Origin: Escherichia phage SUT_E520
Reading direction: 5' to 3' (one strand)
Sequence record: OQ990040
DNA: 64,000 nucleotides
Part shown: piece by piece, positions 2,644 through 44,970 of the stretch
Layout of the letters: each line of letters opens with the position of its first letter
Numbering within the stretch: the first letter of the stretch is position 1
Made by a program: the position numbers and the translations under genes
Notes under the pieces: generated by a model
Told to the model about the DNA's origin: nothing
Seen by the model: the letters and a program-made list of their open reading frames with translations, nothing else
The model's database searches: none

Positions 2644-3591
2644 TTACTTGTTACGCATATCCATGATCATTTGACCATCGTAGCCAGTACCTACCACAGT
2701 CTGAGGTACACCACCTTGATACTTCTGAGCACGGATCATTTCAACTTCCAGTTGTTTCCAACGAATCATTTCAGGAGTAATGGTACGTTGCAATGCGGCG
2801 TTAGCTTCAGCTTCTTTCTTAGCTGCGTACAGTTTAGCATCTGCGTCACGTTCATTAGCAATAGCTTGGTTGTTACGAGCTTCACGATCTGCTTCTGCTT
2901 GTTTAACTTTTTGCTGTGCTTCCTGTTCAACGCGAGCAAGTTCAGCTTTCGCAGCATTAACTTGCTCTTCACGAACTTTGGTATTCTGTACCTGTTCCAT
3001 GATTACTGGCGGCAAGGTAATATCCTGAAGGAATACCTGCTTAACTGTGTAACCATATGGGCGCGCATACTCTTCAACTTCCTGTTGAATTGCAGTTTGC
3101 AATTGAGCCTGAATTTTAGCATCAAATAAATCTTGTGCTTTAGGTACAGACTTACCAAACTCACGAATAGTAGACAGTAATTTTTCAGTTACATACTTGT
3201 CTAGTGCCTGATCCTGAGTACCTGCGTTAATACGGTTAATCGGTGCTTTAGAACCATCAAACTGCAACATAACAGTCAGGTCAACAGTGGATTTAAACTT
3301 ATCCTGGCTAGGAACCTGAAGTTTATCTAATTTTACAGCAATATCTTTTGTACTAAAAGTATCGAAAGATGCAAACGGGTTTACAAGATGGAAGCCCGGC
3401 AATACTGGATTAGGGTCTACTTTACCCAGGAATGTTTGGGTTTTAACCGTACCATCAGAAACAATAGTATATGAATTAAAAGCTAGGATTAAACCTGCTA
3501 AACCAACTACAGCACCAATACCCCAACGTTTAATAGTACGAATTACTTTCTGCTCAGAAGTCAGTTCTTTCATATTTTTAGTAGCAAACAT
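2644..3591 (-). CDS. SPFH/band-7 (prohibitin/HflKC-like) membrane protein
   Basis: N-terminal transmembrane segment (GIGAVVGLAGLILAF), band-7-like core, long charged coiled-coil tail (AKAELARVEQEAQQKVKQAEADREARNNQAI). Confidence 0.6.
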   Translation of the reverse strand: MFATKNMKELTSEQKVIRTIKRWGIGAVVGLAGLILAFNSYTIVSDGTVKTQTFLGKVDPNPVLPGFHLVNPFASFDTFSTKDIAVKLDKLQVPSQDKFKSTVDLTVMLQFDGSKAPINRINAGTQDQALDKYVTEKLLSTIREFGKSVPKAQDLFDAKIQAQLQTAIQQEVEEYARPYGYTVKQVFLQDITLPPVIMEQVQNTKVREEQVNAAKAELARVEQEAQQKVKQAEADREARNNQAIANERDADAKLYAAKKEAEANAALQRTITPEMIRWKQLEVEMIRAQKYQGGVPQTVVGTGYDGQMIMDMRNK

Positions 3592-3625
3592 ATATTTCCT
3601 TTGTTTTAGTTACAGTTAATAAAAT

Positions 3626-3700
3626 TGGCCGAGGTGACAGGATTCGAACCTGCATAAAGGAATTTAGAAGACTCCTGCCTCTCCCTTAGACTACACCCCG
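3626..3700 (-). tRNA. tRNA-Arg (anticodon UCU); CCA encoded
   Basis: Reverse complement folds as acceptor CGGGGTG/CACCTCG, anticodon stem GGAGT/ATTCC with loop CTTCTAA, T arm GCAGG-TTCGAAT-CCTGT, 3' GCCA. Confidence 0.75.
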
Positions 3701-4202
3701 TTTAAGTATTTTTAAGAACTCTCGTAAAAACTCTTAAAAATACAGACGATACCGGGAGAGTCATAAGTCTCACTCATTAAGTATTTCAAGACAAAATACA
3801 GTAACGTCTATTATTTTCCAGTTTAAGTCAGGGTGACTTAGTGGTTATGTCCTGCGGTATATTGAGGACTCGGTTAGGCTTGGGGTCATGACTTCCCACC
3901 TTTTGCTGCTACTCAACAGGAGTTATCGCGAATTACCTGTGCTATTGTGCACCATTAGTGACATCTCTCATGTCAGCATTTCCCACTTTGTGGATAGCTT
4001 GAAAAACTACTCCGATATGGAGAAAGAACTTCACTATCCTAGAATACCTTCTAAAGTTCTTCTTTAGCCTGGACATAGTTAAATCGTAATAAAACTATTC
4101 AGCAGACTGGTTGGTTAGTCTGGAACCAACTACCGCGTGGTTTAGGCAGTGCGCAACTAACCTCGGAAGCTTTTATGTTAAAAGCATCAGTTATCCAGTT
4201 CT

Positions 4203-4274
4203 TACCGACCGTAGGATTCGAACCTACATCTTCCACCAGTTACGGCTTGATAATACCAATTATACTAGGACGGC
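4203..4274 (-). tRNA. tRNA-like element, possibly degenerate; anticodon not resolved (CGU is one possible reading)
   Basis: Perfect T arm GTAGG-TTCGAAT-CCTAC and 6/7 acceptor pairing, but irregular D and anticodon arms and no encoded CCA. Confidence 0.35.
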
Positions 4275-4497
4275 AGTGTTACTACATAAGTGATTTCCAC
4301 ACCCCACTATTTATAAATCAGAGAAGAGTTTAGGGGAGAGGTTTCAGACGCCTCATTTTACACGTTCTAGCCACTAACCGGGATTGCCGCCCCCTGTGTA
4401 CTAGTTTTACAACTAACCCACCGACTCTATTCAATGCGCTCCGGTTGGGATTCTGCACTCAGCGTAATCGGCTCGCTGTTCCCTAATTTATGAATAT

Positions 4498-4526
4498 ATT
4501 ATACAGAATTTATAAGCATTTAGCAA
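4498..4526 (-). promoter_or_regulatory. sigma70-type early promoter (TTGCTA-17-TATAAT)
   Basis: Minus-strand hexamers at 17-nt spacing; transcribes leftward into the tRNA/noncoding region. Confidence 0.65.
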
Positions 4527-4534
4527 ATGAATTT

Positions 4535-4969
4535 TTAGAAAAATTCACTAGCAATCAAAGCAGTTGTTTTACCGTCATAACGTCCGGGAAATTCTGCCTT
4601 AATAGTTTTCATTAATAGAGCTTTGGTAATACCTGGGTTTAATTTAACCAGTTCTGCAAAATACTCACGAATCTGAACCTCAGTCAGTTGACTTGGCTGA
4701 TACTCTTGCAGCATGGAATAAAGCAGTTGCTCATAGTCTACATCAGTAGGAACTTCCATACCAACTTTAATAGCGCGTTGTTTTGCATTTTCTAGAGCCT
4801 TAATCTGAGCTTTCAGATAGGCTACGAACTCGGTTCGAGTAACAATGTCTTTATCAATACGTTGCAGATCACCAATCATGGTCTGAAGATTAAGTGCCCG
4901 TTCCTTATCACCGTGAGTACGTGCTAGACTAAGTAGTCCACGAAGGGTCATTAGAATATTTTCACCCAT
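4535..4969 (-). CDS. hypothetical protein
   Basis: 144-aa ORF; its ATG overlaps the stop of the upstream small ORF (TAATG). Confidence 0.6.
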   Translation of the reverse strand: MGENILMTLRGLLSLARTHGDKERALNLQTMIGDLQRIDKDIVTRTEFVAYLKAQIKALENAKQRAIKVGMEVPTDVDYEQLLYSMLQEYQPSQLTEVQIREYFAELVKLNPGITKALLMKTIKAEFPGRYDGKTTALIASEFF

Positions 4970-5139
4970 TATTTCATCCCCAATGCTTGGTTAAAAGATT
5001 GTTCTGTCATAACTGCTGAGACTTTGGCGAAATCAAACTTTTTAGGGTTCGTAGTTATTTCAGCAACGTTAGAAGTTTTAACAGTTTTCGTAGTACGAAT
5101 ACCGCGAGTGTTAACACCAATAATTACAACTGATTTCAT
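4969..5139 (-). CDS. hypothetical small protein (56 aa, MKSVVIIGVNTRGIRTTK...), absent from the ORF track
   Basis: ATG 8 nt after RBS GAGAGGAAG directly downstream of the 5171..5199 promoter; stop overlaps the next start. Confidence 0.5.
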   Translation of the reverse strand: MKSVVIIGVNTRGIRTTKTVKTSNVAEITTNPKKFDFAKVSAVMTEQSFNQALGMK

Positions 5140-5170
5140 ATTTCGCTTCCTCTCATTAATTTATGAAAGT

Positions 5171-5199
5171 ATTATACAGAAATTTAAGTAGCTAAGCAA
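5171..5199 (-). promoter_or_regulatory. sigma70-type early promoter (TTGCTT-17-TATAAT)
   Basis: Minus-strand hexamers at 17-nt spacing plus CATAAATTAATGAGAGG leader. Confidence 0.65.
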
Positions 5200-5207
5200 G
5201 TAAATTT

Positions 5208-5657
5208 TTAAGTTTTAGTGACAACAGGTTTATAGAATGTATGTCCCTTAATCTTAGTTGTTTTCTTAAACTTCTTTGTCCAGTAAGGTTTATCTTTACC
5301 ACTATGGAAGTATAGTGCTCCATATGTAGGATCTTGTGGTAAATCAACGTAGTATATCACTCTAGCTAAATTCTTAGCGGTTTGCCAAGCCTCATCAGTT
5401 TTATCAACTTTTGGTCTCTTAGATACCCAAGAGAACTGGTTAGACTGATATACTACTTTACAGTAGGAATCTGGGAATTTACCGGAGTTTACACGGTTTT
5501 TAGTAACATGTGCAATCGCCGTCATTCCCTTTATGCCCTCACCACGACTTTCGAAATAGATATTTTTAGCAATGCAATCTATTTCTTTTGCATCGTGCGA
5601 TGCCTGACTACTAAAGCTGAAGGTAAGGGCAGCTACTAAAAGCAAAGCTGCCTTCAT
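5208..5657 (-). CDS. secreted cell-wall hydrolase, SleB/CwlJ family, with signal peptide
   Basis: ORF track start is TTG; the ATG at MKAALLLVAALTFSFSSQA follows RBS AGGAGT; motifs NIYFESRGE, AIAHVTKNRV, VVYQSNQFSW. Confidence 0.65.
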   Translation of the reverse strand: MKAALLLVAALTFSFSSQASHDAKEIDCIAKNIYFESRGEGIKGMTAIAHVTKNRVNSGKFPDSYCKVVYQSNQFSWVSKRPKVDKTDEAWQTAKNLARVIYYVDLPQDPTYGALYFHSGKDKPYWTKKFKKTTKIKGHTFYKPVVTKT

Positions 5658-20606: not shown

Positions 20607-20796
20607 GGGTTTAAACGCCGCTTTGGAAAACGCATTAATGCAGCACTGGGAAACTGGCTATAAGGATGGTGTTGAATCCTGCGCTACTATGCTAGAAGTT
20701 ATTGCTAATACCTTAATGGAGAAAGGCAATAAAGAATTAGCTGAGCTATTAGACAGTATTGGGCAAAACTTCAGAGAACAGGTGAAAAATGCGTAG
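20575..20796 (+). CDS. hypothetical protein
   Basis: 73-aa ORF behind RBS GAGGAG. Confidence 0.5.
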   Translation: MAFSKPMLPDKGLNAALENALMQHWETGYKDGVESCATMLEVIANTLMEKGNKELAELLDSIGQNFREQVKNA

Positions 20797-21604
20797 ATTA
20801 ATTGTTATTAGCGGTGCAGGTTTGAGTGTTGAAAGTGGTGTACGAGCTTTTCGTACTGATACTGCTAGTGGTAAAGCATTGTGGGATGATTATGATCTAG
20901 AAGAAGTATGTAATATTCATGCCTTTCGTGGTAATTTTTATCATAAAACCCATATGTTTTACAACAAGCGTCGTGAAGAGCTAAAAACTGTTGAACCCAA
21001 TCTTGCGCATTTGCGTATCGGTGAATGGTATAAACAATATCCAGGTCAAGTAGTAAACTTGACTACCAACGTTGATGACCTTATTGAGCGTTCTGGCGTT
21101 CCACATAATGACATTCTACACATTCATGGATATTTAAAAGAGGTTGTTGTAGCTGATAGCTACAATAGTAGCAATAAACGGATTATTGATGTAGGATACA
21201 ATTCTATTGATCCAGATGATTATAAATGGGTTAAACCTAATGTAATCTTCTTTGGAGAGCATGCTCCAGCATATGCGGAGATGTACAATGTTTTTGATGG
21301 TATTACCAGTCAAGATATGATCATTGTGGTTGGTTGCTCTAACCAAGTAATTAACTTCTACTGGGAATTATTTCCTGTTCTTAATTTGACTGCTGCCAAG
21401 CTAATGGTTGTTAACTACTATGATAGTGCCCTAGCGGCGGAACCGAGCTATCAAGGTATGACTCGTAGTGAGATGTACCAGCTGGAAGAACGCGGTATCC
21501 CTTACTGGGGTAAAGGTGCGGTAGATGCTTTCAGTGATCCTGATTTTATTGCTCGTGTAGAAGCTCATTTAGGGGGTAGACCTTATGTGTCAGGAAATAA
21601 GTAA
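20789..21604 (+). CDS. Sir2-like (sirtuin-family) NAD-binding protein without Zn-ribbon
   Basis: GAGLSVESGVRAFR, TTNVDDLIERSG and catalytic-His HIHGY motifs; no CxxC pairs in the expected region. Confidence 0.65.
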   Translation: MRRLIVISGAGLSVESGVRAFRTDTASGKALWDDYDLEEVCNIHAFRGNFYHKTHMFYNKRREELKTVEPNLAHLRIGEWYKQYPGQVVNLTTNVDDLIERSGVPHNDILHIHGYLKEVVVADSYNSSNKRIIDVGYNSIDPDDYKWVKPNVIFFGEHAPAYAEMYNVFDGITSQDMIIVVGCSNQVINFYWELFPVLNLTAAKLMVVNYYDSALAAEPSYQGMTRSEMYQLEERGIPYWGKGAVDAFSDPDFIARVEAHLGGRPYVSGNK

Positions 21605-22927: not shown

Positions 22928-22953
22928 TGATTTTTATTAGCTGAACTCTGATT

Positions 22954-22980
22954 ACCGAGTCATTTTGGCTCGGTTTTATC
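22954..22980 (+). terminator. intrinsic terminator
   Basis: Hairpin ACCGAG...CTCGGT followed by TTTTAT. Confidence 0.6.
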
Positions 22981-23011
22981 CGTACTCAAGACCAATGATA
23001 GCACCATCCGG

Positions 23012-23040
23012 AAAATTTTACTTGCAGGATGCTCAAAATC
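23012..23040 (+). promoter_or_regulatory. sigma70-type promoter (TTGCAG-17-TATAAT) with ATTGAATTGAGAG leader and no adjacent ORF
   Basis: Hexamers at 17-nt spacing; next plausible start codon is about 500 nt downstream. Confidence 0.55.
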
Positions 23041-23549
23041 TTGATATAATATTTATATTGAATTGAGAGATATTAGTAAAAATTGATTTTGCTAATTTTT
23101 CTTGTTTACAATCCGCGATACGGAACAGTTAGGCTGCCCAATTAAGGGTTGTTTTAACTGTTACGTGTTAGTTTTTAAACAAATAGTTAATAGAATACTT
23201 AGCGATCTGCGTCCCGTAGGAACCCTGGTAAGGCCTCGAAGCAACCTAGATAGAGGTGGTTGTGAAGTGAGACGGGAGGAGTGAAAAACTCCGAGACGTG
23301 ATTCTGTAAGTTATATTGCATCTAGTATGAGCTAGTACATGAAGCATTAGGTGAGCAAATCTGGCTTAGCGGCCATCCTCAAGGATTTGTGCGGTATAGC
23401 AAAGCAGCAGCGCAGCGTGAAAGTGGAAGTTGCCACCCCACTTCAGTATTTGCGATTAATTTGTTGAGAAATTGACAGTAACAGTTGTTCTATTCTTTCT
23501 GAATAGTCCTAAAGAAAACTTATTTCATTTCCAACACAGGAGTATTGTT

Positions 23550-26339
23550 GTGTTCTCAATCCTACAAGGTCATGCAGGATTTCATCGCGATTTAGCCACA
23601 GGCAATTGGCGAGAAGTTAAAGCAGAAGACTATCTTTTTGCTAAAAGATTTTCCTCAAAGCATCCTGAAGGTAAACCAGCTTCAATGCCCTTCAAGTTTG
23701 ATGTAATTGATGAAGTTGATCCTCAAACCCTAGTAGAAATGCTTCCTCTTATGAGACGTTTAACGTCTGACCCTCATATCGTTGCGGTACGAGGTCGATG
23801 TCTTACACCTAAAAATAATGTGCGACGTAAGAAGGGCAACTTTAATGTATCTAACCCAAGTCATATAATTGCAATGGACGTGGATGGTATTGTAGATACA
23901 GGTGGTTGCAACAAGTTTGATCTTGTTGGCATGGCTCGACATATTATTAGAATGTTAAATAGTATTAGTGAGGATATGTTTCCTCTTGATGCAGGGTTTA
24001 TCGCTCATGCATCGTCTTCGGCTGGGCTAAAACCAGGTATCCGAATGCACTTAATACTAGAATCTAATGTTAAAGTAACTCAGGGTCAAATCAAATTCTT
24101 ATTTACATCTATCAACGAAAGTAGTAGACAAAAGTATGGCTTTGATATTGCCGACTTAGCTTATTACTCTTCCGTACAGCTCCACTATTTTGCAGATCCG
24201 TTATTTACCGATGGTATAGTAGATCCGTTTAAAGCGGAGGGTGCTTCACGTCTGGTATTTGTTAAGGGTTCTAAAGTAAATTTACCCAATAATCTGGTTG
24301 ACTATGAAACAACTAGAGGTGAGTTTAAGGAGGAGTTTTACTCTTTACTCGATCAAATTAAAGGTAAAAAAGCTGCCTCTGATAAAGTAGAGGAAACTAT
24401 CAGCGAACTAGAAGAAGCTGAGGATGGAGTGTATCTACGTATCATACCTAAACTCTATCACAGAGCCTTAGAGGATGGTGTTGATTTTGCATGGCTAGAA
24501 AAAGAAATCCGTCCAGCCTTATCAGAATATATTGCAACTAAAGATAACAGTCGCAATATTCAAGATTACTTTAATAACGGTCGTAAACAGGCTCTGAAAG
24601 CATTTGTTAATAATTCTAAACGTGATATACCTGATGTTTTAAAGGGTATTCCACTTAAAAAGCTAGAAACTAATTCTCTAGAAACTGATAACTTCTTGAA
24701 ATTAAATACTGTACCACCAGAAGGTTATATGACTTTTGTAAAAGCAAGTCTAGGTACAGGTAAAACTACAGCGGTTGTGCGTTGGTTAGATTCAGGAGTT
24801 ATTAAAGGTAATTTCTTAGCAATTACCAATACTAGAGCACTGGTATCTTCAAATGCCAAGAAATTTAGTGCAGGACAATATGATAAGTCTGTAGATATGC
24901 TTAATTTTAAGCGGGGTGCTATTGACCGTATGTCCACAACTATTCACTCTTTGCATAAATTCAAGAGTTTTATTGGTCAAATTGATGCAATCTTTATCGA
25001 TGAATGTGATGCAGTAATGAATGACCTATTATTCGCCCCGGTTGTTAAACAACGTCGCGAGTGTATTCAGGTTCTTCGGGATATTCTTGCAACTGCAAAA
25101 ATCATTATATTATCTGATGGGGATATTAGTGCAGAAACAATTGAAGCATATGGTTCTTTGATTGAGTTTGATAAACCAGTAGCATTTTATAACCATCACC
25201 GTAAAATGCTATCAAAAGCTCATGCTTATGAGTTCCCGGATGAATCCAGTATTTGGGTTGCACTTCAGACTTCTCTAGAGATGGGTGAGAAATCTATCCT
25301 AGTATCTGACTGTGGGCCGGATGAACTGAATGAGAAGGGTATGGCATTGCGTCGTAATACGGGTGCGTTAGTTAAGGAAATCCACTCAAATTCTACATCC
25401 GATGTAGATATTCGACGTATTCTGGATTACACAACTAATGAGCTAATTGATCAACAAATTGATTGCTTATTATGTAGTCCATCCGTAACAAGTGGTGTTG
25501 ACTTCAACTATTTTGATAACGTATTCGTTATTACTAGAACCAGCAACCAAGCGCCAAACATGCGTTTCCAAGCAATCAGGCGCGACCGTGGCGCTCAGAA
25601 CATTTATTATTTTATTGATAAATCTACGAGTGGATTCTCCGCAGGTTCTGAGCAATATAACATTGACGAAGGTTGGCTGGAGTTAGCACAACAATTATAC
25701 GCACGTCGTAGAGAGCTGGAATCTAGGAATTATACTAGTACTTTACGTTATTACTTGCTTGATCAGGGTGCAACTATTGATATTTTCAGTGAAAGCTGGG
25801 GAACTATCGAAGGTGCTGGGAAGGAATATACGGAAGAGCGAATCAAAGCTATTTTATATTCAACTCCTGATTATTGTGCTCCACGTCATGCTGATGCGTA
25901 TGAAGCTAAACTACTTCTTGTTCGCTACTATCATCTTGAGTCTATTAAAGATGTAACAGTTGAGCATGTTGAACAATATATCAAGGATAAACCTAATGAT
26001 CGAGCGGCATTCTTCCATAAAATGCACGAGATGTTCTGGGAAGATATTAAGAAGTGTTCAAATGTCACTATCAAACCATTCATAGAAGCTCTGAAAGGTA
26101 AGAAGAAAGATTTCTTCCTTAAAACAGGTCAGAGTGCTAACCCAAAATATGCCAGAATGTATCTTGGTATGATGGGTATTGGTAAGGATATGAACACTGA
26201 AAATATTGTAGACTGGTACAGAACCTATTGTAAAATCGAGTGTATGCCAATCCCCTATAAGTTTATGACTGATGAGGAGAAACATATGCATGATGAAGCA
26301 ATGGCAGAGCTAGGTGCTAGAAATGACAGTGAAGAATAA
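23550..26339 (+). CDS. large replication-associated protein: N-terminal AEP/PrimPol-like domain plus P-loop NTPase (helicase-like)
   Basis: ORF track 23472..26339; GTG start at 23550 behind RBS CAGGAG; DxD (IIAMDVDG), sxH-like (GIRMHLIL), Walker A ASLGTGKTT, Walker B IFIDECD. Confidence 0.6.
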   Translation: MFSILQGHAGFHRDLATGNWREVKAEDYLFAKRFSSKHPEGKPASMPFKFDVIDEVDPQTLVEMLPLMRRLTSDPHIVAVRGRCLTPKNNVRRKKGNFNVSNPSHIIAMDVDGIVDTGGCNKFDLVGMARHIIRMLNSISEDMFPLDAGFIAHASSSAGLKPGIRMHLILESNVKVTQGQIKFLFTSINESSRQKYGFDIADLAYYSSVQLHYFADPLFTDGIVDPFKAEGASRLVFVKGSKVNLPNNLVDYETTRGEFKEEFYSLLDQIKGKKAASDKVEETISELEEAEDGVYLRIIPKLYHRALEDGVDFAWLEKEIRPALSEYIATKDNSRNIQDYFNNGRKQALKAFVNNSKRDIPDVLKGIPLKKLETNSLETDNFLKLNTVPPEGYMTFVKASLGTGKTTAVVRWLDSGVIKGNFLAITNTRALVSSNAKKFSAGQYDKSVDMLNFKRGAIDRMSTTIHSLHKFKSFIGQIDAIFIDECDAVMNDLLFAPVVKQRRECIQVLRDILATAKIIILSDGDISAETIEAYGSLIEFDKPVAFYNHHRKMLSKAHAYEFPDESSIWVALQTSLEMGEKSILVSDCGPDELNEKGMALRRNTGALVKEIHSNSTSDVDIRRILDYTTNELIDQQIDCLLCSPSVTSGVDFNYFDNVFVITRTSNQAPNMRFQAIRRDRGAQNIYYFIDKSTSGFSAGSEQYNIDEGWLELAQQLYARRRELESRNYTSTLRYYLLDQGATIDIFSESWGTIEGAGKEYTEERIKAILYSTPDYCAPRHADAYEAKLLLVRYYHLESIKDVTVEHVEQYIKDKPNDRAAFFHKMHEMFWEDIKKCSNVTIKPFIEALKGKKKDFFLKTGQSANPKYARMYLGMMGIGKDMNTENIVDWYRTYCKIECMPIPYKFMTDEEKHMHDEAMAELGARNDSEE

Positions 26340-26556
26340 AAAATGGGAAACAAGGAAGTTTCCAGTAAAAGAACGTAAAGTTCCTGTTTACGACACTTCG
26401 GAAAAGCTATGTAGGGTGGTACCGCATAGATTAGCTGGCATCCCTAACATATCCGAGTGGTTACTTAAACAACGGAAAACAAACGTGTCTCTTCGTATCG
26501 GCTTTGAATTAGATAAAGTCTATGCTGAACTTGCTTCTTTACTCAAGGAATCGTAA
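26323..26556 (+). CDS. hypothetical protein
   Basis: ORF track 26314..26556; ATG at MTVKNKKWE overlaps the end of the large gene. Confidence 0.45.
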   Translation: MTVKNKKWETRKFPVKERKVPVYDTSEKLCRVVPHRLAGIPNISEWLLKQRKTNVSLRIGFELDKVYAELASLLKES

Positions 26557-26624: not shown

Positions 26625-27329
26625 ATGGCTGGTTCTCGTAGAAAGAAACATATCCATGAAATCCCGGATGAAGTCTTTAAAAAGGTTATAGAGCATCTGG
26701 AGAACGGTGGTACCAAGAAAGCAGCATGTGAAATGCTCGGCGTATCATCCAATCCAACTATGGAAAGGATGATTGAAGAATGGCAAGACCGCCAGATTCA
26801 AGTGGCTGAAATGAAGAAAAAGAAACGTGGCACACTCATTGAAGGCATTGAGTTAGCTAACGTTATTGAACAGTATTTGTCTGGTGATTCTTTTGAAGAA
26901 ATTGCCGATCGTAATTACCGCTCTGTAGCAATGGTTAAATCTGTTCTGGAACGATATGGTGCTCTGCTTCGTTTGAATGATATTGTAGATCCATTGAATC
27001 CTCCAATTATTCCTGATGATGCTGTAGCAGAAGAATTTGCAGTTGGTGAGCTTGTTTGGGTTCCTGGATACCAGTGTATCGGTGAAATCAAAAAAGCAAT
27101 GGATAACCCTGTTGGTTGTTACCGTGTATGGCTTCTATCAGAAGGCAAACAACAGAACGTTCATTATATGAATTACGAGCTGGCTTCTGTTAAACATCTG
27201 GAAAAGTTAGGGGTAGACGTAAAATCTCTAGGATATAAGTGGACTCGTGAAGAAATTATTACGTTGATTAACGAAGCTGTTAAGGCTGCCCTGAAACTTG
27301 ATAAAGAAAAAGGAAAACGCCGTGAGTAA
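26625..27329 (+). CDS. hypothetical protein with N-terminal helix-turn-helix
   Basis: 234 aa; GGTKKAACEMLGVSSNPTMERM resembles an HTH. Confidence 0.55.
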   Translation: MAGSRRKKHIHEIPDEVFKKVIEHLENGGTKKAACEMLGVSSNPTMERMIEEWQDRQIQVAEMKKKKRGTLIEGIELANVIEQYLSGDSFEEIADRNYRSVAMVKSVLERYGALLRLNDIVDPLNPPIIPDDAVAEEFAVGELVWVPGYQCIGEIKKAMDNPVGCYRVWLLSEGKQQNVHYMNYELASVKHLEKLGVDVKSLGYKWTREEIITLINEAVKAALKLDKEKGKRRE

Positions 27330-30309: not shown

Positions 30310-31083
30310 TTGATGAAAATCGAAATTCCAACACAATGTCCCTCTTGTGGTTCTAAGCTAGATCTTGTCAACGGACAATTATTTTGTCGGAATAAGTCCA
30401 ACTGTCCAGCGCAATCAAGTAAGTTAATTGAGAACTTCTGTACAAAAATGAAGTTAAAGGGTTTTGGTCCAAAAACTATTGAGAAGCTGGAGCTGACGAA
30501 GATTTCAGAACTATTTTACCTAACCGAAGAAGATTTGGTTAGAGCCGTGGGTAGCAAGGTTGCCGCTAAGTTAATTAGCGAATTAAATACTAAAGTTCGC
30601 GGAGACATTGACTTTGGTTCAGTTCTCGGTTCTTTAGGAATCCCTCTAATTGGAGAGGTTGCAGCAAAGAAATTATCCCAAAATTGCACTAGCTTCCACG
30701 ATGTGAAGGCTGACGGCAAGGCTGGAGAAAATTATAAAGCCTGGCTAAATTCCCCACAAGGCAAGGATGTTATCGAATTACCGTGGAAATTCTCAACTGG
30801 TGCTAAAGCTAAAACCGTCGTTACTGATGATTTAGTTGCCCAGCCAAATGGAATCGCGGTATGTATTACCGGATCTTTGCAAGACTTTGCAAATCGAACG
30901 GATGCAACAAACTATTTAGAAGGTCTAGGATATACGGTTAAGAAATCTGTTACCAAAGACGTCAAATACCTAATCTGTGAGGATGAATCGAAGCGTTCTT
31001 CCTCATCTTATAAGAAAGCCGAAACGAATGGGATAGAAATCCTGTCGATTAAAGAACTATTGGAGAAAAATAATAATGTCTAA
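30310..31083 (+). CDS. ligB: NAD-dependent DNA ligase, C-terminal part (Zn-finger, HhH, BRCT)
   Basis: Cys4 motif CPSCGS...CRNKSNCPAQ, HhH-like GFGPKTIEKL and GIPLIGEVAAKKL, BRCT-like C-terminus. Confidence 0.75.
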   Translation: MMKIEIPTQCPSCGSKLDLVNGQLFCRNKSNCPAQSSKLIENFCTKMKLKGFGPKTIEKLELTKISELFYLTEEDLVRAVGSKVAAKLISELNTKVRGDIDFGSVLGSLGIPLIGEVAAKKLSQNCTSFHDVKADGKAGENYKAWLNSPQGKDVIELPWKFSTGAKAKTVVTDDLVAQPNGIAVCITGSLQDFANRTDATNYLEGLGYTVKKSVTKDVKYLICEDESKRSSSSYKKAETNGIEILSIKELLEKNNNV

Positions 31084-31925: not shown

Positions 31926-33398
31926 ATGACCTTGTTTAACGTGCAAGCTGTAGTGTTGAAGATGCTTCTAGCTTCCGAACAGAAGCAAATAGCATTGGAA
32001 ACATTCTCAAAACTGCATAAAGATCATTTTAATGACGCTTTCTCCTCAATTTACCAAGCCGTCCAGAATTATTATAAAAAATATAACACAATGCCGTCCA
32101 TTGACGCACTTATGCTTGAAGCTAATAGGAACGCCCGCCTTTCTCAAGCCCTAGTCGTCTTAGCTAACACTCAAATTCCAGAAGTGAGCATGGAACAGGC
32201 ACTTGAAGTCCTAGAGGCCGAGTATACACAGGATTTATTCCTGAAGCTTCTAGAAACAGACGTGCTTCAAGATTTAACAATGCTGGATCAGGGAGAAATT
32301 CTCAACCGAGTTGCCTCCCTTCACTTAAAATTAGAAGAGAAAGTAACGAATACTGGAAAAGTATTCAACGCAGATAACATGCGTATTTTCCAGAGAGAAG
32401 AAGATACCAAACTGAACTTAATCGCTCTTGGTATTTGTAATGAGTTCGATGCTCAAATTGGTTTAGCTCGCACAGAAACGTTACTGCTTGGTGGTTGGCG
32501 TGGTACTGGTAAATCCATTATCTGTTCAAACATACAGGTTCAGCAATATTTGAATGGAGATATTGCTCCATACTTCTCAATTGAGATGAAAGAACATGAA
32601 GTATTTAGACGTAATCTAGCCATGTTAGCCGGGGTATCAGCACTAGCAATGCGTAATAATACTCTAGAAGGTGCAGCTCTATTGAGATTAGCCAGAACTA
32701 GAGCTAGAATGTTCAACGGGGGTGAAGAGCTTTTCGATAACTTCGTTAAACAGTATACAATGGCTAAGATGAGTGATTTCTACGATATGGAGAGTAAGCT
32801 AATAGAGGGGTATGAACTACATACTCCTATGATTATCGTTTATGACCCTGAACTGTCCATTACAACAGTTGACGTAGAATTAAATAAATTAGTTGCTAGA
32901 TATGGTGATAAAGTTACAGTAGCTTTACTGGACTATATTAACCAAACCCGACTTCCAGATTCTAAAACCATTGATATGTATGACTGGAAGGAACAGATGG
33001 TTGTTAGCTCGTCTTTCAAATCCATCTGCCAGAAACATAACGTGGCTGGCGTAGCTCCCTACCAGATCGATCAAGATGGTAGAACACGTATGTCAAAGGG
33101 GATTCTTGATTCCGCAGACATGGCTGCTAATCTTAATGCTGCTAAAGCTGATAATGGTCAAGGTGCTATTATGTTTGACTTTGTTAAGACTCGTTCTTCT
33201 GATAGCGTGAAGTTTATGCCTAAAATGAATTGGGAAACTCTGCGAATGGATAATACTACCAACCTAGCAATGGAAGATATATCTCAAATGGAAGCTGAGT
33301 TCGTTATCCCTATTGAGAAGGATAAGCCGGCTCAACCTAAACGTGCTAAGAAAGACAAAACTGAAAATTCAACAGGTGAACAGGCCAGCGATATATGA
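31926..33398 (+). CDS. replicative DNA helicase (DnaB-like, RecA fold)
   Basis: ORF track 31875..33398 runs through the terminator; start placed near MTLFNVQ; Walker A LLLGGWRGTGKS. Confidence 0.55.
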   Translation: MTLFNVQAVVLKMLLASEQKQIALETFSKLHKDHFNDAFSSIYQAVQNYYKKYNTMPSIDALMLEANRNARLSQALVVLANTQIPEVSMEQALEVLEAEYTQDLFLKLLETDVLQDLTMLDQGEILNRVASLHLKLEEKVTNTGKVFNADNMRIFQREEDTKLNLIALGICNEFDAQIGLARTETLLLGGWRGTGKSIICSNIQVQQYLNGDIAPYFSIEMKEHEVFRRNLAMLAGVSALAMRNNTLEGAALLRLARTRARMFNGGEELFDNFVKQYTMAKMSDFYDMESKLIEGYELHTPMIIVYDPELSITTVDVELNKLVARYGDKVTVALLDYINQTRLPDSKTIDMYDWKEQMVVSSSFKSICQKHNVAGVAPYQIDQDGRTRMSKGILDSADMAANLNAAKADNGQGAIMFDFVKTRSSDSVKFMPKMNWETLRMDNTTNLAMEDISQMEAEFVIPIEKDKPAQPKRAKKDKTENSTGEQASDI

Positions 33399-34285
33399 GT
33401 AGAATAACAGAACTACTTGATCTGAAAGGCATTGAATATAAAGACACAGGTGGGGACATCCTCATCTGTTGTCTCAATCCAGATCATGACGATAAACACC
33501 CAAGTTTGCGTATTGATCCTGAAACAGGTATTATGCACTGCTTGAGTTGTGGCTTCGGTAAAGGTATACCGAGCATTTACCATTATTTTAATGAGACTCA
33601 GTACCGACAGTCTCCAAGACTATCGCAGGTACGTAAAAAGATTTCAGAGATTAGGAATGGATCTACAAATCTTGCAATTCCTGAATCTGCTTACCTTTTC
33701 GAAGGTGATTTCCGAGGTATAAGTTCTAAGACCTTGAAGAAATACTTTGCTTTCCAACACCAAGCAGACTGGGAAGGCAGAATTGTATTCCCAATCACAG
33801 ATGCTGTTGGACGCAATATCCTATTTTTGGGTCGTTCTATAAACAGTTCTGCCCCTCCTAAATACTTAGTAAAACCAAAACAAGTTTCACCACCGATTTT
33901 CCCTGTACGATATAATACTCCAGTTCTTATTCTAGTTGAAGGTATCTTTGATATGCTGAACCTAGAGGATAATGGTATAGACTATGCTTCTTGCTGCTTT
34001 GGTACACATCAGTTTACTTCAGATAACATTGCAGATAAGTTTAGCCCTTATATTATTGCTGGTGTAAAAGTTGTTGTTATCTTACTAGATAATGATGCTT
34101 CTGGTAATAAAGCTGCACAAGCGTTGGCCAAGCTAATTCGTACAAAAACGCGTTTAACACCTGTAGTGGCTAACTTTCTTCTACCCGAAGGTAAAGACCC
34201 TGGTGACTTAAATAAAGAAGAAATTGATATGTTAGCAAAACGTATTGAAATTTTAGTTGCTGAATCGCTTAAAGATTTGGTATAA
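33395..34285 (+). CDS. DNA primase (CHC2 zinc finger plus Toprim)
   Basis: Zn-finger CCLNPDHDDKHPS...HCLSCGFGKG; Toprim VEGIFD and LDNDASG; ATGA overlap with the helicase. Confidence 0.7.
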   Translation: MSRITELLDLKGIEYKDTGGDILICCLNPDHDDKHPSLRIDPETGIMHCLSCGFGKGIPSIYHYFNETQYRQSPRLSQVRKKISEIRNGSTNLAIPESAYLFEGDFRGISSKTLKKYFAFQHQADWEGRIVFPITDAVGRNILFLGRSINSSAPPKYLVKPKQVSPPIFPVRYNTPVLILVEGIFDMLNLEDNGIDYASCCFGTHQFTSDNIADKFSPYIIAGVKVVVILLDNDASGNKAAQALAKLIRTKTRLTPVVANFLLPEGKDPGDLNKEEIDMLAKRIEILVAESLKDLV

Positions 34286-34347: not shown

Positions 34348-36784
34348 TTGAAAATCGCAGTAGTTGATAAAGCTCTAAATAACACTCGTTACGATAAACA
34401 TTTCCAGCTATACGGCGAGGAAGTTGATGTATTTCATATGTGTAACGAGAAGTTATCTGGTCGTTTGCTTAAAAAGCACATTACTATTGGAACACCAGAA
34501 AATCCATTTGATCCGAATGATTACGATTTTGTTATACTAGTAGGTGCTGAACCTTTCCTGTATTTCGCAGGTAAGAAAGGCATTGGTGACTATACTGGTA
34601 AACGTGTAGAATATAATGGATATGCTAACTGGATTGCAAGTATCAGCCCAGCCCAGTTACACTTTAAGCCTGAAATGAAACCAGTTTTCGATGCAACAGT
34701 AGAGAATATCCACGATATTATCAATGGTCGTGAAAAGATTGCAAAAGCTGGTGATTACCGTCCTATTACTGACCCTGATGAGGCGGAAGAATATATCAAG
34801 ATGGTGTATAATATGGTTATCGGACCTGTCGCATTCGACTCCGAAACCTCAGCACTATACTGTCGAGATGGTTATCTGCTTGGTGTTTCTATATCTCACC
34901 AAGAGTATCAGGGTGTATATATCGATTCTGATTGTCTCACAGAGGTTGCAGTATATTATCTCCAGAAAATTCTGGATAGTGAAAACCACACTATTGTTTT
35001 TCACAACTTGAAGTTTGATATGCACTTTTATAAGTACCATCTGGGACTTACTTTTGATAAAGCACATAAAGAACGCAGGCTCCATGATACAATGTTGCAG
35101 CATTATGTTCTAGATGAGCGTCGTGGTACTCATGGCTTGAAATCTCTAGCAATGAAGTATACCGATATGGGTGACTATGACTTTGAACTAGATAAGTTCA
35201 AAGATGATTACTGCAAAGCACATAAAATCAAGAAAGAAGATTTCACCTATGATTTAATTCCGTTTGATATTATGTGGCCTTACGCTGCAAAAGATACCGA
35301 TGCCACCATACGCTTGCACAACTTCTTCTTACCAAAAATTGAGAAGAATGAAAAACTTTGCAGTCTGTATTATGATGTTCTAATGCCTGGTTGTGTATTT
35401 CTCCAGCGTGTTGAGGATCGTGGTGTACCAATTTCTATTGATCGCTTGAAAGAAGCTCAGTATCAGTTAACTCATAATCTGAATAAAGCTCGTGAGAAAC
35501 TATATACTTATCCAGAAGTCGTTCAGCTAGAAAAAGATCAGAATGAAGCGTTTAATCCAAACTCTGTTAAGCAGCTACGTGTTCTTCTGTTTGATTATGT
35601 TGGCTTAACTCCAACAGGTAAATTGACGGATACTGGAGCAGACTCTACAGATGCAGAAGCTCTGAACGAACTGNNNNNNNNNNNNNNNNNNNNNNNNNNN
35701 NNNNNNNNNNNNNNNNNNNNNNNNNNNNNNNNNNNNNNNNNNNNNNNNNNNNNNNNNNNNNNNNNNNNNNNNNGGGTATCGTGTAATCGCATGGGACTTA
35801 ACAACTGCGGAAGTTTATTATGCTGCTGTTCTATCTGGGGATAGAAATATGCAACAGGTATTTATCAATATGAGAAATGAACCTGATAAATACCCGGACT
35901 TCCACTCTAACATCGCACACATGGTATTTAAACTCCAATGCGAGCCTCGTGATGTTAAAAAGTTATTCCCAGCTCTGCGTCAGGCTGCTAAGGCAATTAC
36001 CTTCGGTATTTTGTATGGTTCTGGCCCAGCTAAAGTAGCTCATTCTGTTAACGAAGCTCTTCTGGAACAGGCTGCTAAGACAGGAGAACCGTTTGTTGAA
36101 TGTACTGTTGCGGATGCGAAGGACTATATCGAAACTTACTTCGGTCAGTTCCCACAGCTTAAGCGTTGGATTGATAAGTGCCACGATCAGATTAAGAATC
36201 ATGGATTTATCTATAGTCACTTTGGTCGTAAGCGTCGTCTGCACAATATCCACTCCGAAGACCGTGGTGTTCAGGGTGAAGAAATTCGTTCTGGATTTAA
36301 CGCAATCATTCAGTCTGCTTCCTCTGATAGCCTCCTTTTAGGTGCTGTAGATGCAGATAATGAGATCATTTCTCTTGGCCTAGAACAAGAGATGAAGATT
36401 GTTATGCTGGTTCATGACTCCGTGGTTGCTATTGTTCGTGAGGATTTGATCGACCAATACAATGAAATCCTGATTCGTAATATTCAGAAAGACCGTGGTA
36501 TCAGTATTCCTGGCTGTCCGATTGGTATTGATTCAGATTCTGAAGCTGGAGGTTCTCGTGACTATTCTTGTGGTAAGATGAAGAAACAGCACCCATCAAT
36601 CGCTTGTATTGATGATGATGAATATACTCGTTATGTCAAGAGTGTATTACTTGATGCAGAGTTCGAGTATAAGAAACTAGCTGCAATGGATAAAGAGCAT
36701 CCAGATCATAGCAAATACAAGGATGATAAGTTTATTGCTGTATGTAAAGATTTGGATAACGTAAGAAGGATTCTCGGTGCTTGA
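34348..36784 (+). CDS. DNA polymerase, family A, interrupted by the unresolved gap 35674..35773
   Basis: N-terminal part MKIAVVDKAL (TTG start) with 3'-5' exonuclease region, then after the N-run YRVIAWDLTTAEVYYAAVLSGD (motif A-like); frame shifts across the gap. Confidence 0.8.
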
Positions 36785-39887: not shown

Positions 39888-39987
39888 NNNNNNNNNNNNN
39901 NNNNNNNNNNNNNNNNNNNNNNNNNNNNNNNNNNNNNNNNNNNNNNNNNNNNNNNNNNNNNNNNNNNNNNNNNNNNNNNNNNNNNNN

Positions 39988-40905: not shown

Positions 40906-43255
40906 GACACTAAAATTTAGTAACGTTATGTCTTACGGTAAGGACATCGTAATTCATCTCGATAAGAATCCCGTTACTCAACTAATCGGGGGCAATGGGC
41001 TAGGGAAATCTACAATTGCTACTGTTATTGAAGAACTATTCTATAATAAGAACTCACGCGGTATTAAGAANNNNNNNNNNNNNNNNNNNNNNNNNNNNNN
41101 NNNNNNNNNNNNNNNNNNNNNNNNNNNNNNNNNNNNNNNNNNNNNNNNNNNNNNNNNNNNNNNNNNNNNNAATGGGCTAGGGAAATCTACAATTGCTACT
41201 GTTATTGAAGAACTATTCTATAATAAGAACTCACGCGGTATTAAGAAAGATGCTCTGTTCTCTTGGTCTTCTCCGAAAAAAGAATACGATATGCACGCTT
41301 ATTTCTCGAAAGATGAGGATGAGTATGAACTGCATAAAGTAGTTAAGTCAACTGCTAAAGTAACTCTTATTAAGAATGGGGAAGATATTAGTGGACACAC
41401 GGCAACCCAAACATACAAGATGATTGAAGAAATTATGGGTGGTGACTTCCAAACATTCACCAAACTGATTTATCAATCGGTGGGCTCCAATCTAGACTTT
41501 CTAAAAGCAACGGATGCAACACGTAAGGCTTTTCTTGTTAACTTGTTCAATCAAGAACAGTATAAAGAAATGTCAGAAACTATTAAGGCTGACCGTAAAG
41601 AAATAGCAAATACCTTAAACAATTTGCAAGGCCAAATGGCTGTAATTACGAAAATCCTTAATGGAAAGAATAATCTAGGAACTCTACAGGAACCTGTAGA
41701 AGTACCGGAGTTTGATGAAGAACCATTAGCACAAGAACTTACTGAATCGAAAATTAAGGCGGCATTAGCCAAGTCTCAAGAGGCTAATATTACTAAATTG
41801 CGTAATTTGGACAAAGCTGTACAAGTTGCCGAACAATCTTTCGAACCTTTCAAAAATTTACCCGCGCCCACCGACCAAAACGAAGAGATCTCAAGTGTTA
41901 CGCGTGACCTAACGATTGTGACCTCACGTGCTGGTGAAGTTAAGAAACGTTATCAGAAGTTCAAGCAAGAGGCTTCAAATACTGAATGTCCTACTTGTGG
42001 TACTCATCTGGANNNNNNNNNNNNNNNNNNNNNNNNNNNNNNNNNNNNNNNNNNNNNNNNNNNNNNNNNNNNNNNNNNNNNNNNNNNNNNNNNNNNNNNN
42101 NNNNNNNNNNNNGAAGTTAAGAAACGTTATCAGAAGTTCAAGCAAGAGGCTTCAAATACTGAATGTCCTACTTGTGGTACTCATCTGGATACAACTGCCG
42201 CTCAAAAAGCAATGGATATGGCTAGAACAGAATATGATCCTCTGTTCAAAGAGAAGCAATCTCTTGAAGCTAAGCTAGAACAGTTGAGGAAAGAACAACT
42301 TGAGTACGTTGCGTATATTAGAGCAAAGGATGCCTTGGATAAAGCAGTGGTAGCTAGGGACGAGTTCAAAAATTCAATGAGTGATGCTTCTTTTGAAGAA
42401 CTCAATGTGCAAATCCTACAGGTGCAAATCCGACAATTAGAACAGGAAATCGCTGATGGNNNNNNNNNNNNNNNNNNNNNNNNNNNNNNNNNNNNNNNNN
42501 NNNNNNNNNNNNNNNNNNNNNNNNNNNNNNNNNNNNNNNNNNNNNNNNNNNNNNNNNNNGATGCTTCTTTTGAAGAACTCAATGTGCAAATCCTACAGGT
42601 GCAAATCCGACAATTAGAACAGGAAATCGCTGATGGACGTTCTAAGGTTGCAATTGCCAAAGAGCATAATGCAAATGTCGAATTAGCCAATGCAAAATAT
42701 AAAGCGAAACTAGAACAGATTGAGAAAGCTGAAGCAGAAATGTCCGAGATTACTTCCAAATTAAATGAAGTATCAGAAGCTGTTGCTGATCTCGATATTC
42801 TGATTGCTGCATTGAAGAATTTAGTAGGATATAAACTAGAGCATAGTGTGAAAGTATTTGAAGAACTAATTAATAAATACCTTTCTATTATGACTGGCGG
42901 TAAATTCGCACTTGGATTTGAACTTGATGAAACAAAATTACAAGTAGTAATCTTCAATGATGGAAATCGTACCAGTATGGAGAACTGCTCTACTGGTCAA
43001 CAGAGTCGAATTAACCTAGCAACCCTGTTAGCTATTCGGATGCTGTTAACATCTATTAGTAAAGTTAATATTAATCTTCTATTCCTTGATGAAGTAATTA
43101 GCTTTATTGATACGAAAGGACTTGACACTCTTGTTGAATTATTAAACGAGGAAGAAAGTCTAAATTCTATCATTGTTTCTCATGGGCATACGCATCCACT
43201 AGCTCATAAGATTACTGTCAAAAAAGATGCAGAAGGATTTTCCTACTTAGAATAA
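40886..43255 (+). CDS. SbcC/Rad50-like ATPase; contains three duplication/N-run artefacts
   Basis: Start MSKITIKTLKF overlaps the SbcD stop; Walker A GGNGLGKST, long coiled coil, C-terminal LLFLDEVISFIDTKG; real length about 612 aa after removing three 177-nt insertions. Confidence 0.7.
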   Translation: MSKITIKTLKFSNVMSYGKDIVIHLDKNPVTQLIGGNGLGKSTIATVIEELFYNKNSRGIKXXXXXXXXXXXXXXXXXXXXXXXXXXXXXXXXXXNGLGKSTIATVIEELFYNKNSRGIKKDALFSWSSPKKEYDMHAYFSKDEDEYELHKVVKSTAKVTLIKNGEDISGHTATQTYKMIEEIMGGDFQTFTKLIYQSVGSNLDFLKATDATRKAFLVNLFNQEQYKEMSETIKADRKEIANTLNNLQGQMAVITKILNGKNNLGTLQEPVEVPEFDEEPLAQELTESKIKAALAKSQEANITKLRNLDKAVQVAEQSFEPFKNLPAPTDQNEEISSVTRDLTIVTSRAGEVKKRYQKFKQEASNTECPTCGTHLXXXXXXXXXXXXXXXXXXXXXXXXXXXXXXXXXXEVKKRYQKFKQEASNTECPTCGTHLDTTAAQKAMDMARTEYDPLFKEKQSLEAKLEQLRKEQLEYVAYIRAKDALDKAVVARDEFKNSMSDASFEELNVQILQVQIRQLEQEIADXXXXXXXXXXXXXXXXXXXXXXXXXXXXXXXXXXDASFEELNVQILQVQIRQLEQEIADGRSKVAIAKEHNANVELANAKYKAKLEQIEKAEAEMSEITSKLNEVSEAVADLDILIAALKNLVGYKLEHSVKVFEELINKYLSIMTGGKFALGFELDETKLQVVIFNDGNRTSMENCSTGQQSRINLATLLAIRMLLTSISKVNINLLFLDEVISFIDTKGLDTLVELLNEEESLNSIIVSHGHTHPLAHKITVKKDAEGFSYLE

Positions 43256-43258
43256 AAC

Positions 43259-43918
43259 ATGGCTGTAGATAGTAGAGAGAAAGGTAAACGTGGTGAATAT
43301 CAGGTAAGAGATATTCTACGTGAGCGTACAGGTCTTGAGTGGGAACGTGTTCCTGGCTCTGGTGCTTTTGGCCAGAGCCACGGACTGAAAGGTGACATCT
43401 ANNNNNNNNNNNNNNNNNNNNNNNNNNNNNNNNNNNNNNNNNNNNNNNNNNNNNNNNNNNNNNNNNNNNNNNNNNNNNNNNNNNNNNNNNNNNNNNNNNN
43501 NCGTACAGGTCTTGAGTGGGAACGTGTTCCTGGCTCTGGTGCTTTTGGCCAGAGCCACGGACTGAAAGGTGACATCTACCTTCCACCACAAAGCGGACAC
43601 ATTAGTAAATACTGCTTCGAAGTTAAGTGGTATAAAGATGATAATATATCAAGTAATTTATTTAATGTTGGTGAATCCACTCTAGAGAAGTGGTGGCAGC
43701 AGTGCTCACGTGAAGGTGAGCAGATGAACTCCAAACCTGCATTAATATTCAAAAAAGACAGAGGACAGTGGTTAATAGCTTTGGATAGCTCAGACCCAAT
43801 GGTTGACAACTTAATGAGTCGTACCCATATGGTGTTAAATAAGAAAGACATGGAAATCGTAATTGGTTTATTTGAACCGTGGCTACATCATGCATCTGTT
43901 GAGGACTTAATTAAATAA
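43259..43918 (+). CDS. hypothetical protein (possible nuclease fold); contains one duplication/N-run artefact
   Basis: Real length about 160 aa; GKRGEYQVRDIL...GDIY...EVKW pattern is only suggestive. Confidence 0.45.
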   Translation: MAVDSREKGKRGEYQVRDILRERTGLEWERVPGSGAFGQSHGLKGDIXXXXXXXXXXXXXXXXXXXXXXXXXXXXXXXXXXRTGLEWERVPGSGAFGQSHGLKGDIYLPPQSGHISKYCFEVKWYKDDNISSNLFNVGESTLEKWWQQCSREGEQMNSKPALIFKKDRGQWLIALDSSDPMVDNLMSRTHMVLNKKDMEIVIGLFEPWLHHASVEDLIK

Positions 43919-44970
43919 TGAGTAAATCCTGGGGAAAATTTATTGAAGAAGAGGAAGCTGAAATGGCTTCCCGTCGTAACCTAATGATTGTCGATGGAAC
44001 TAACTTAGGCTTTCGCTTCAAACATAACAACAGTAAAAAACCATTTGCCTCAAGTTATGTTTCCACTATTCAGTCTCTAGCAAAATCTTATTCTGCTAGA
44101 ACTACAATAGTTTTAGGAGATAAGGGGAAGTCTGCATTCCGCTTAGAGCATTTACCTGAGTATAAGGGTAATCGAGATGAGAAATACTCTCAGCGTACGG
44201 AAGAGGAGAAAGCGTTAGATGAGCAGTTCTTCGAGTATTTGAAAGATGCTTTCGAGTTATGTGAAACTACATTCCCAACTTTCACTATTCGGGGTGTAGA
44301 AGCAGATGATATGGCNNNNNNNNNNNNNNNNNNNNNNNNNNNNNNNNNNNNNNNNNNNNNNNNNNNNNNNNNNNNNNNNNNNNNNNNNNNNNNNNNNNNN
44401 NNNNNNNNNNNNNNNTTGAAAGATGCTTTCGAGTTATGTGAAACTACATTCCCAACTTTCACTATTCGGGGTGTAGAAGCAGATGATATGGCAGCTTATA
44501 TTGTTAAACTGATCGGGCATCTATATGATCACGTTTGGCTGATTTCTACTGATGGTGACTGGGATACTTTATTAACTGATAAAGTATCTCGCTTCTCTTT
44601 CACAACACGTCGTGAATACCATCTTCGTGATATGTATGAGCATCATAATGTTGACGATGTAGAGCAGTTTATCTCCCTGAAAGCAATTATGGGTGATTTA
44701 GGGGATAATATCCGAGGTGTTGAAGGTATTGGGGCAAAGCGCGGGTATAATATTATTCGTGAATTTGGTAACGTTCTGGATATTATTGATCAGCTTCCAC
44801 TGCCTGGAAAACAGAAATATATACAGAATTTAAATGCTTCGGAAGAATTGCTTTATCGAAACCTAATTCTGGTTGATTTACCTACCTACTGTGTGGATGC
44901 TATTGCTGCTGTAGGTCAAGATGTATTAGATAAATTTACAAAAGATATTTTGGAGATTGCAGAACAATGA
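43918..44970 (+). CDS. flap endonuclease / 5'-3' exonuclease; contains one duplication/N-run artefact
   Basis: MSKSWGKFIEEEEAEMASRRNLMIVDGTNLGFRF N-terminus and H3TH region GDLGDNIRGVEGIGAKRG; about 291 aa after removing the 177-nt artefact. Confidence 0.85.
   Translation: MSKSWGKFIEEEEAEMASRRNLMIVDGTNLGFRFKHNNSKKPFASSYVSTIQSLAKSYSARTTIVLGDKGKSAFRLEHLPEYKGNRDEKYSQRTEEEKALDEQFFEYLKDAFELCETTFPTFTIRGVEADDMXXXXXXXXXXXXXXXXXXXXXXXXXXXXXXXXXXLKDAFELCETTFPTFTIRGVEADDMAAYIVKLIGHLYDHVWLISTDGDWDTLLTDKVSRFSFTTRREYHLRDMYEHHNVDDVEQFISLKAIMGDLGDNIRGVEGIGAKRGYNIIREFGNVLDIIDQLPLPGKQKYIQNLNASEELLYRNLILVDLPTYCVDAIAAVGQDVLDKFTKDILEIAEQ

Follow-up and report, generated by a model that had tools for sequence, protein, structure and literature searches.

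The stretch of Escherichia phage SUT_E520 DNA analysed here (OQ990040; 64,000 nucleotides, hereafter the window) contains a long open reading frame whose product had been predicted to join an N-terminus resembling archaeo-eukaryotic primases (AEP/PrimPol) to a central P-loop NTPase. Separate genes for a DnaG-type primase and a DnaB-like helicase are located further downstream. This raises the question of what the large protein does in a phage with a conventional primase of its own. The genes concerned are:

23550..26339, + strand: D2 or 'replication origin binding protein' gene, 929 aa, GTG start (CDS in phages SUT_E1520 and Lindwurm; PHROG 3712)
23538..23542, + strand: ribosome-binding site AGGAG, 7 nt 5' of the GTG (seen in the sequence; a ribosome-binding site is annotated there in phage Lindwurm)
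31875..33398, + strand: separate gene for a DnaB-like (SF4) helicase (Pfam DnaB_C, E 7.8e-9; CDS bounds from SUT_E1520)
33395..34285, + strand: separate gene for a DnaG-type primase (Pfam: CHC2 zinc finger (Zn_ribbon_DnaG), DNAG_N and Toprim)

Over positions 23400-26400, the sequence agrees fully with that of Escherichia phage SUT_E1520 (100% identity), and many Tequintavirus genomes match it at 97-98%, so that the window can be assigned to a T5-like phage (Demerecviridae). At the DNA level, matches to this region were obtained in 506 phage records. The window also holds eleven runs of exactly 100 N and is thus a scaffolded draft. A frameshift in the DNA polymerase gene is only apparent and is caused by a 100-N scaffold gap, not by biology.

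The reading frame of the large gene is open from 23472 to 26339. The GTG at 23550, given as the start in the original prediction, is also the start of the deposited CDSs of SUT_E1520 and phage Lindwurm. It agrees with the position of the AGGAG motif and with the matching start (VFSILQG) from which T5 D2 was cloned (Wong et al. 2013, PMC3632103). The CHC2/Toprim primase had been placed correctly at 33395..34285, as the Pfam matches confirm. For the DnaB-like helicase, predicted at 31926..33398, the family assignment holds, while the annotated start is at 31875. A search of the 620-nt spacer 5' of the large gene for origin-like features yielded no significant repeats and no Rfam match; the spacer contains one unremarkable promoter-like site.

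By sequence, the product of the gene is an orthologue of the D2 protein of phage T5. It shares 92% identity with T5 D2 (AAU05245) across 926 aa and matches PHROG 3712 ("replication origin binding") collinearly over the full length (E = 0, positions 1-927 of 927). Genomic position and GTG start are common to both genes, and the Walker A/B motifs, motifs V/VI and K405 are identical in both proteins. The protein is therefore not new, its helicase activity having been characterised in 2013. T5 D2, for which a His-MBP construct exists, was purified and studied in vitro by Wong, Sayers and Sanders (NAR 2013, PMC3632103), who found an ATP-dependent SF2 helicase that unwinds DNA with both polarities and binds ssDNA as a low oligomer. 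Helicase activity depends on K405, the K405E exchange inactivates the protein, and D2 amber mutants of T5 perform no net DNA synthesis (PMC3632103). The ATPase, bipolar helicase and ssDNA-binding data should be transferable to the SUT_E520 protein. The features described by Wong et al. are a PF02399 region at aa 392-532, two coiled coils and a predicted HTH at aa 308-329, with no mention of a primase or AEP domain within the first 390 residues (PMC3632103).

Naming of the protein is not uniform. The CDS annotation in about 500 T5-like phage records reads "putative replication origin binding protein", a label which stems from a weak analogy to UL9. Some GenBank records use "DNA primase C", and in many others the name 'D2 protein' sits on a neighbouring 234-aa ORF instead.

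The domains and motifs of D2, as delimited by sequence comparison and modelling, are as follows:

23550..24293, + strand: N-terminal AEP/PrimPol-like domain, aa 1-248
23877-23885, + strand: putative motif I of the N-terminal domain, DxD, D110/D112
24012-24050, + strand: putative motif II of the N-terminal domain, S155-H167
24153-24155, + strand: putative motif III of the N-terminal domain, D202
24249-24251, + strand: putative motif IV of the N-terminal domain, R234
24294..24332, + strand: flexible linker, aa 249-261, the only internal segment with a pLDDT below 50 in the full-length model
24333..24617, + strand: four-helix domain, aa 262-356, containing the 'HTH 308-329' predicted by Wong et al.
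24720..25649, + strand: SF2 helicase core with two RecA-like domains, aa 391-700
24753-24770, + strand: Walker A, GTGKTT, aa 402-407 (from the translation)
24990-25010, + strand: Walker B, IFIDECD, aa 481-487 (from the translation)
25650..26336, + strand: all-helical C-terminal domain, aa 701-929, a candidate DNA- or partner-binding domain

Both Walker motifs were thus found in the centre of the protein, as originally predicted, and of the two helicase superfamilies considered for this region, SF2 is retained and SF3 is not. Pfam detects only Herpes_ori_bp (PF02399) on D2 (aa 394-533, 29.2 bits), above the gathering cut-off of 20, and SF2 motifs I, II, V and VI are present, which is in line with a helicase of the UL9 type. 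Among PDB sequences, D2 yields significant matches only to HSV UL9 chains (aa 388-552), and the similarity ends at aa ~552. The NCBIfam model for CyRepA1 (NF042913) covers aa 393-722 with an E value of 4.7e-35 and 121.6 bits. This score is below the equivalog cut-off of 200 bits, indicating that D2 is a relative of CyRepA1 and not an equivalog; nor does D2 have the N-terminal DUF3854/Toprim domain of CyRepA1, its N-terminus being AEP-like. No match to D5, VapE or DUF5906 was obtained for D2, so that an SF3 reading was rejected. Judged from the Herpes_ori_bp, UL9 and CyRepA1 matches, the P-loop region is a UL9/CyRepA-type SF2 helicase and not SF3. The four-helix domain occupies the position taken by PriCT/helix-bundle domains in other primase-helicases. 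Weak profile matches to GapR/UPF0335 (E about 0.1) in the segment aa 276-347 were put down to helical or coiled-coil noise.

The N-terminal domain is conserved in 905 phage records and is hardly accessible to standard sequence searches. Pfam gave no match even at E 10, and NCBIfam gave none for aa 1-390. PDB sequences searched with the single protein gave no match to the N-terminus, and a 32-sequence domain profile found nothing there below E = 1. A comparison by hhalign with an alignment of S-2L PrimPol, which was shallow (4 sequences found), resulted in a probability of 0.7%; its sole match pairs motif II of D2 with motif II of S-2L PrimPol and is not significant. None of these searches linked the N-terminus significantly, by sequence profile, to any curated AEP family or any AEP of solved structure, and a search for homologous proteins with the D2 N-terminus returned fragments only. 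Among PHROGs, only phrog_16950 ("DNA primase") links to the domain, being matched by 24/32 N-terminal domain sequences.

When 1.84 billion representative proteins were searched exhaustively with HMMER, 81 relatives of the N-terminal domain were identified. Of these, about 35 are D2-like and 900-1050 aa long; the remaining relatives range from 200 to 1200 aa and have only aa ~30-260 of D2 in common. The remote homologues carry PriCT_2, VapE-like, DUF5906, Pox_D5/D5_N or P4-type primase C-terminal regions behind the shared domain, and it is only in these homologues that D5, VapE and DUF5906 domains occur. The regions found behind the shared domain are the classic partners of AEP primase domains in the primase-helicases of mobile elements.

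The DxD (IIAMDVDG, aa 105-112) and sxH-like (GIRMHLIL, aa 163-170) motifs on which the AEP proposal was based are present in the translation, the latter within SSSAGLKPGIRMHLIL at aa 155-170. D110, D112, S155, H167 and D202 are invariant in 29/29 representatives of the D2 family clustered at 50% identity or less, on par with the Walker A/B motifs. The same residues are retained in cultured Aeromonas and Vibrio phages, whose N-terminal domains are only 24-31% identical. In view of this invariance at such low identity, the motifs are more than a chance occurrence. Across the wider set of 78 domain sequences, D202 is invariant (78/78) and R234 is conserved to about 92%. The conserved positions of this set are R81, R93, D110, D112, S155, S157, G159, H167, D202, Q210, Y213, P217, D225, P226 and R234.

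An AlphaFold model of aa 1-390 of D2, based on a 68-sequence alignment, reached a pLDDT of 93.9. It displays the alpha/beta modules and the RRM-like sheet of the AEP catalytic fold. Motif I (D110-V-D112) is located on the strand formed by residues 104-114. Motif II consists of SSSAG followed by RMH167 in strand 164-176, motif III is the conserved D202, and R234 stands at the start of strand 235-238. The order and strand setting of AEP motifs I-III and of the 'Rh' motif IV were described by Kazlauskas et al. (2018, PMC5862659), and D2 matches this arrangement for all four motifs. R234-L235 takes the position of the 'Rh' motif at strand 235-238, and together with the retained H167 this corresponds to the pattern of PrimPol-PV1 and All3500-like enzymes.

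Comparison of the model with the PDB by Foldseek resulted in AEP enzymes at all of ranks 1-44. The best match was LigD PolDom (E 1.6e-3, probability 0.99), and the AEPs found also include ASFV PrimPol, S-2L PrimPol, RepB', Prim-PolC, NHEJ polymerase, human PrimPol and VACV D5. The fold scores behind the AEP assignment are modest. The structural comparison, originally suggested for residues 1-300 and carried out on aa 1-390, detected AEP similarity, and the predicted AEP/PrimPol-like N-terminus is supported by the Foldseek ranking, the invariant motifs, the fusion partners and phrog_16950. Based on model and motifs, aa 1-248 of D2 very probably constitute an AEP/PrimPol-type primase domain.

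With an AEP domain in D2 and a separate DnaG, T5-like phages appear to have two primases of unrelated types. The DnaG-type primase was found in 952 phage records and D2 in 905. The counts per genus (DnaG-type primase/D2) are nearly equal, with 357/357 for Vibrio, 270/269 for Salmonella, 129/129 for Escherichia, 82/81 for Klebsiella, 10/10 for Proteus and 7/7 for Aeromonas, indicating that the pairing is family-wide. Across about 900 Demerecviridae genomes, D2 is accompanied by both the DnaG-type primase and the DnaB-like helicase. According to an earlier survey, AEP and DnaG homologues are alternatives in dsDNA viruses, phage RM378 being the sole exception (Kazlauskas 2016). It is a reasonable inference that D2 serves as a second priming or initiation system.

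We consider it likely that the gene encodes the T5-family D2 protein as a single-chain primase-helicase which starts phage DNA replication. In such a protein, aa 1-248 would form the catalytic AEP domain, its active site being intact (DxD, SxH, D and the 'Rh' arginine), connected by the flexible linker of aa 249-261 to a helical bundle (aa 262-356) in the PriCT/helix-bundle accessory position. The UL9/CyRepA-type SF2 helicase would follow at aa 391-700 and a family-specific helical C-terminal domain at aa 701-929. The helicase and the C-terminal part would load at an origin or another entry structure and open it, and the AEP domain would synthesise an initial primer on the single strand thereby exposed. 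This primer would be elongated by the T5 DNA polymerase, and the DnaB-like helicase and the DnaG-type primase would afterwards drive the fork and prime the lagging strand. The primase activity of D2 is a prediction, and we infer both its origin specificity and the split of labour with DnaG. It is not obvious why a phage already holding a conventional DnaG should need a second primase, which is a point against the primase-helicase model, as are the missing sequence-level link to curated AEP families and the absence of notable repeats from the 620-nt spacer. In T5, multiple internal origins have been seen by electron microscopy. A more far-reaching version, which we regard as doubtful, takes the T5-like system as one with two primases in which D2 is a phage fusion of the herpesvirus UL9 and UL52 functions. 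Origin opening and synthesis of the first primer, possibly from dNTPs, would then fall to D2, leaving DnaG with the lagging strand only.

Several known systems resemble D2 in part. HSV-1 UL9 (PDB 9hgi/9hgj; PF02399) is only 16% identical to D2 and, unlike D2, lacks an AEP domain, since herpesviruses have their AEP primase, UL52, as a protein distinct from UL9. Unwinding proceeds in both directions with D2 and only 3'-5' with UL9 (PMC3632103). Origin binding through the C-terminal domain is a feature of UL9 that is putative for D2. The All3500-like AEP family of the PrimPol-PV1 supergroup includes members in which, as in D2, the AEP stands N-terminal to a fused SF2 helicase of the UL9-like kind (PMC5862659). 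The likeness to this family is one of motifs and architecture, their motif II histidine and 'Rh' motif IV arginine corresponding to H167 and R234-L235 of D2. T5 and its relatives are absent from the main text of that study (Kazlauskas et al., JMB 2018, PMC5862659). The same combination of AEP and SF2 is found in gp68 of phage PAU (Kazlauskas 2016). CyRepA1 (Slr7037, cyanobacterial plasmids) and RepA of N15/PY54 are single-chain initiators with the layout of D2, comprising a primase, a helical linker and an SF2 helicase, but their primase domain is of the Toprim/DUF3854 or DnaG type, whereas that of D2 is AEP-like. In pRN1 ORF904, poxvirus D5 and ASFV PrimPol, an AEP, a helical accessory domain and a helicase are combined in one chain as in D2, and AEP domains of this group are among the structural matches to D2. 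Their helicases, however, are SF3 hexamers, whereas that of D2 is an SF2 enzyme acting as a low oligomer.

Other functions are conceivable for the same domains. An active AEP domain might serve not origin initiation but PrimPol-like repriming and fork restart, or recombination-dependent replication, with the bipolar helicase remodelling stalled or nicked forks and the AEP repriming downstream. The presence of repair enzymes among the structural matches (LigD PolDom, Prim-PolC, human PrimPol) would fit such a role, as would the structure-driven bipolar activity of low-oligomer D2 on short substrates (PMC3632103), the lack of origin-like repeats in the 620-nt spacer beside the gene and the existence of a dedicated DnaG/DnaB pair for normal fork priming. 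We nevertheless consider it unlikely: the absence of any net DNA in D2 amber mutants is better explained by initiation or an essential replisome role than by a back-up function, the nearest relatives of the helicase (UL9, CyRepA1) are initiators, and remote homologues of the N-terminal domain occur in primase-helicase replication proteins of mobile elements.

A role of the AEP/RRM-like fold as a DNA-binding or origin-recognition module, with all priming left to the DnaG-type enzyme, has precedents in Rep, E1 and large T antigen, whose origin-binding domains are related. AAV Rep68 appears at Foldseek rank 45, among the weaker matches, D2 is annotated as origin-binding, and its primase activity is putative. 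The family-invariant residues, however, coincide exactly with those that bind metal and nucleotide in AEP motifs I-III and are kept at the low domain identity given above, and the motif IV arginine is conserved nearly throughout. The HUH motif is absent from the N-terminal domain of D2, and its relatives are fused to PriCT_2, a companion of catalytic AEPs, which makes a purely DNA-binding role quite improbable. Finally, the AEP likeness could be an artefact, with a distinct fold in this domain and weak matches that stem from the generic alpha/beta sandwich of a computed model. This we regard as the least probable explanation: the alpha/beta matches are uniformly AEPs in two independent programs, motif order, strand placement and invariance are all AEP-like, and the fusion partners and the PHROG label 'DNA primase' provide independent support.

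Taken together, the D2 protein, its helicase activity and, from bacterial mobile elements, the architecture of an AEP followed by a UL9-like SF2 helicase are already known. Within the library searched, no paper was found linking T5 or Demerecviridae to AEP or PrimPol. What appears to be new is the assignment of an AEP domain to the T5 D2 family and, as its consequence, the presence of two primase types per phage. T5 is a classic model phage, and D2, which is essential for its DNA synthesis, has so far been regarded as just an unusual bipolar helicase. With an AEP domain at its N-terminus, the label of an origin-binding protein would turn into a concrete mechanism, in which one protein opens the DNA and makes the primer in the manner of plasmid Rep primase-helicases. 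On this basis about 900 GenBank records could gain an improved annotation. Bacterial-type and archaeo-eukaryotic-type primases would occur together in a large and well-sampled phage family, a combination found in one dsDNA virus only in the 2016 survey. If the two-primase reading is true, the rule that AEP and DnaG are alternatives in dsDNA viruses would be overturned for a whole family of about 900 genomes, and D2 would connect, as a living link, the replication-initiation modules of tailed phages with those of herpesviruses, the two groups belonging to Duplodnaviria.

In the window, a spacer that spans roughly 620 nt and has no coding function (22928-23549) precedes the D2 gene, whose product is annotated in T5-like phages as a putative replication origin binding protein. 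This spacer was searched for significant repeats, terminators and Rfam matches, none of which were found; in T5, a putative promoter is annotated in the equivalent region. In the related phages Lindwurm, My1 and VAC35, the replication cluster is adjoined on its upstream side by a gene annotated as Sir2-like or NAD-dependent deacetylase, whose counterpart was placed in the window by correspondence with positions 390-1205 of L002, the locus apparently from phage Lindwurm:

~20789-21604, + strand, putative Sir2-like / NAD-dependent deacetylase gene

Directly 3' of D2, T5 and Lindwurm carry a gene for an HNH homing endonuclease (L012, apparently the T5 locus, 3781-4281; L002, 6153-6611), whereas the window features only an 80-aa ORF at this position (26314-26556). 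Based on this difference, the HNH gene looks like a variable mobile insertion.

A stand-alone homologue of the AEP-like (archaeo-eukaryotic primase-like) domain of D2, the 279-aa protein P0088, was observed on the 536-kb metagenome contig L010 (region 2713-5513). The protein encoded directly after it measures 653 aa and contains a Walker A motif, and a terminase small-subunit gene is located near the pair. Similarity between the 653-aa protein and the D2 helicase was not detectable. The two proteins may represent the module of primase and NTPase in split form, carried by a very large phage.

Further downstream in the window, one ORF yielded matches to BRCT and helix-hairpin-helix domains, which is consistent with a putative subunit B of a split NAD-dependent DNA ligase, as known in T5:

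30310-31083, + strand, 257-aa ORF

The family-A DNA polymerase gene appears as two ORFs (34348-35844 and 35849-36784). A frameshift was rejected as the cause, since the break is the first of 11 scaffold gaps in the window, each of exactly 100 N:

35674-35773, 39888-39987, 41071-41170, 42013-42112, 42460-42559, 43402-43501, first six gaps
44316-44415, 48950-49049, 50117-50216, 50614-50713, 51178-51277, last five gaps

The name of the 234-aa HTH protein encoded at 26625-27329 (+ strand) conflicts between records. It is called 'D2 protein' in many GenBank records of T5-like phages and D3 in the T5 record AY692264, in which D2 is the 928-aa helicase, in agreement with Wong et al. (2013). Given these conflicting labels, literature and annotation can readily be mixed up.
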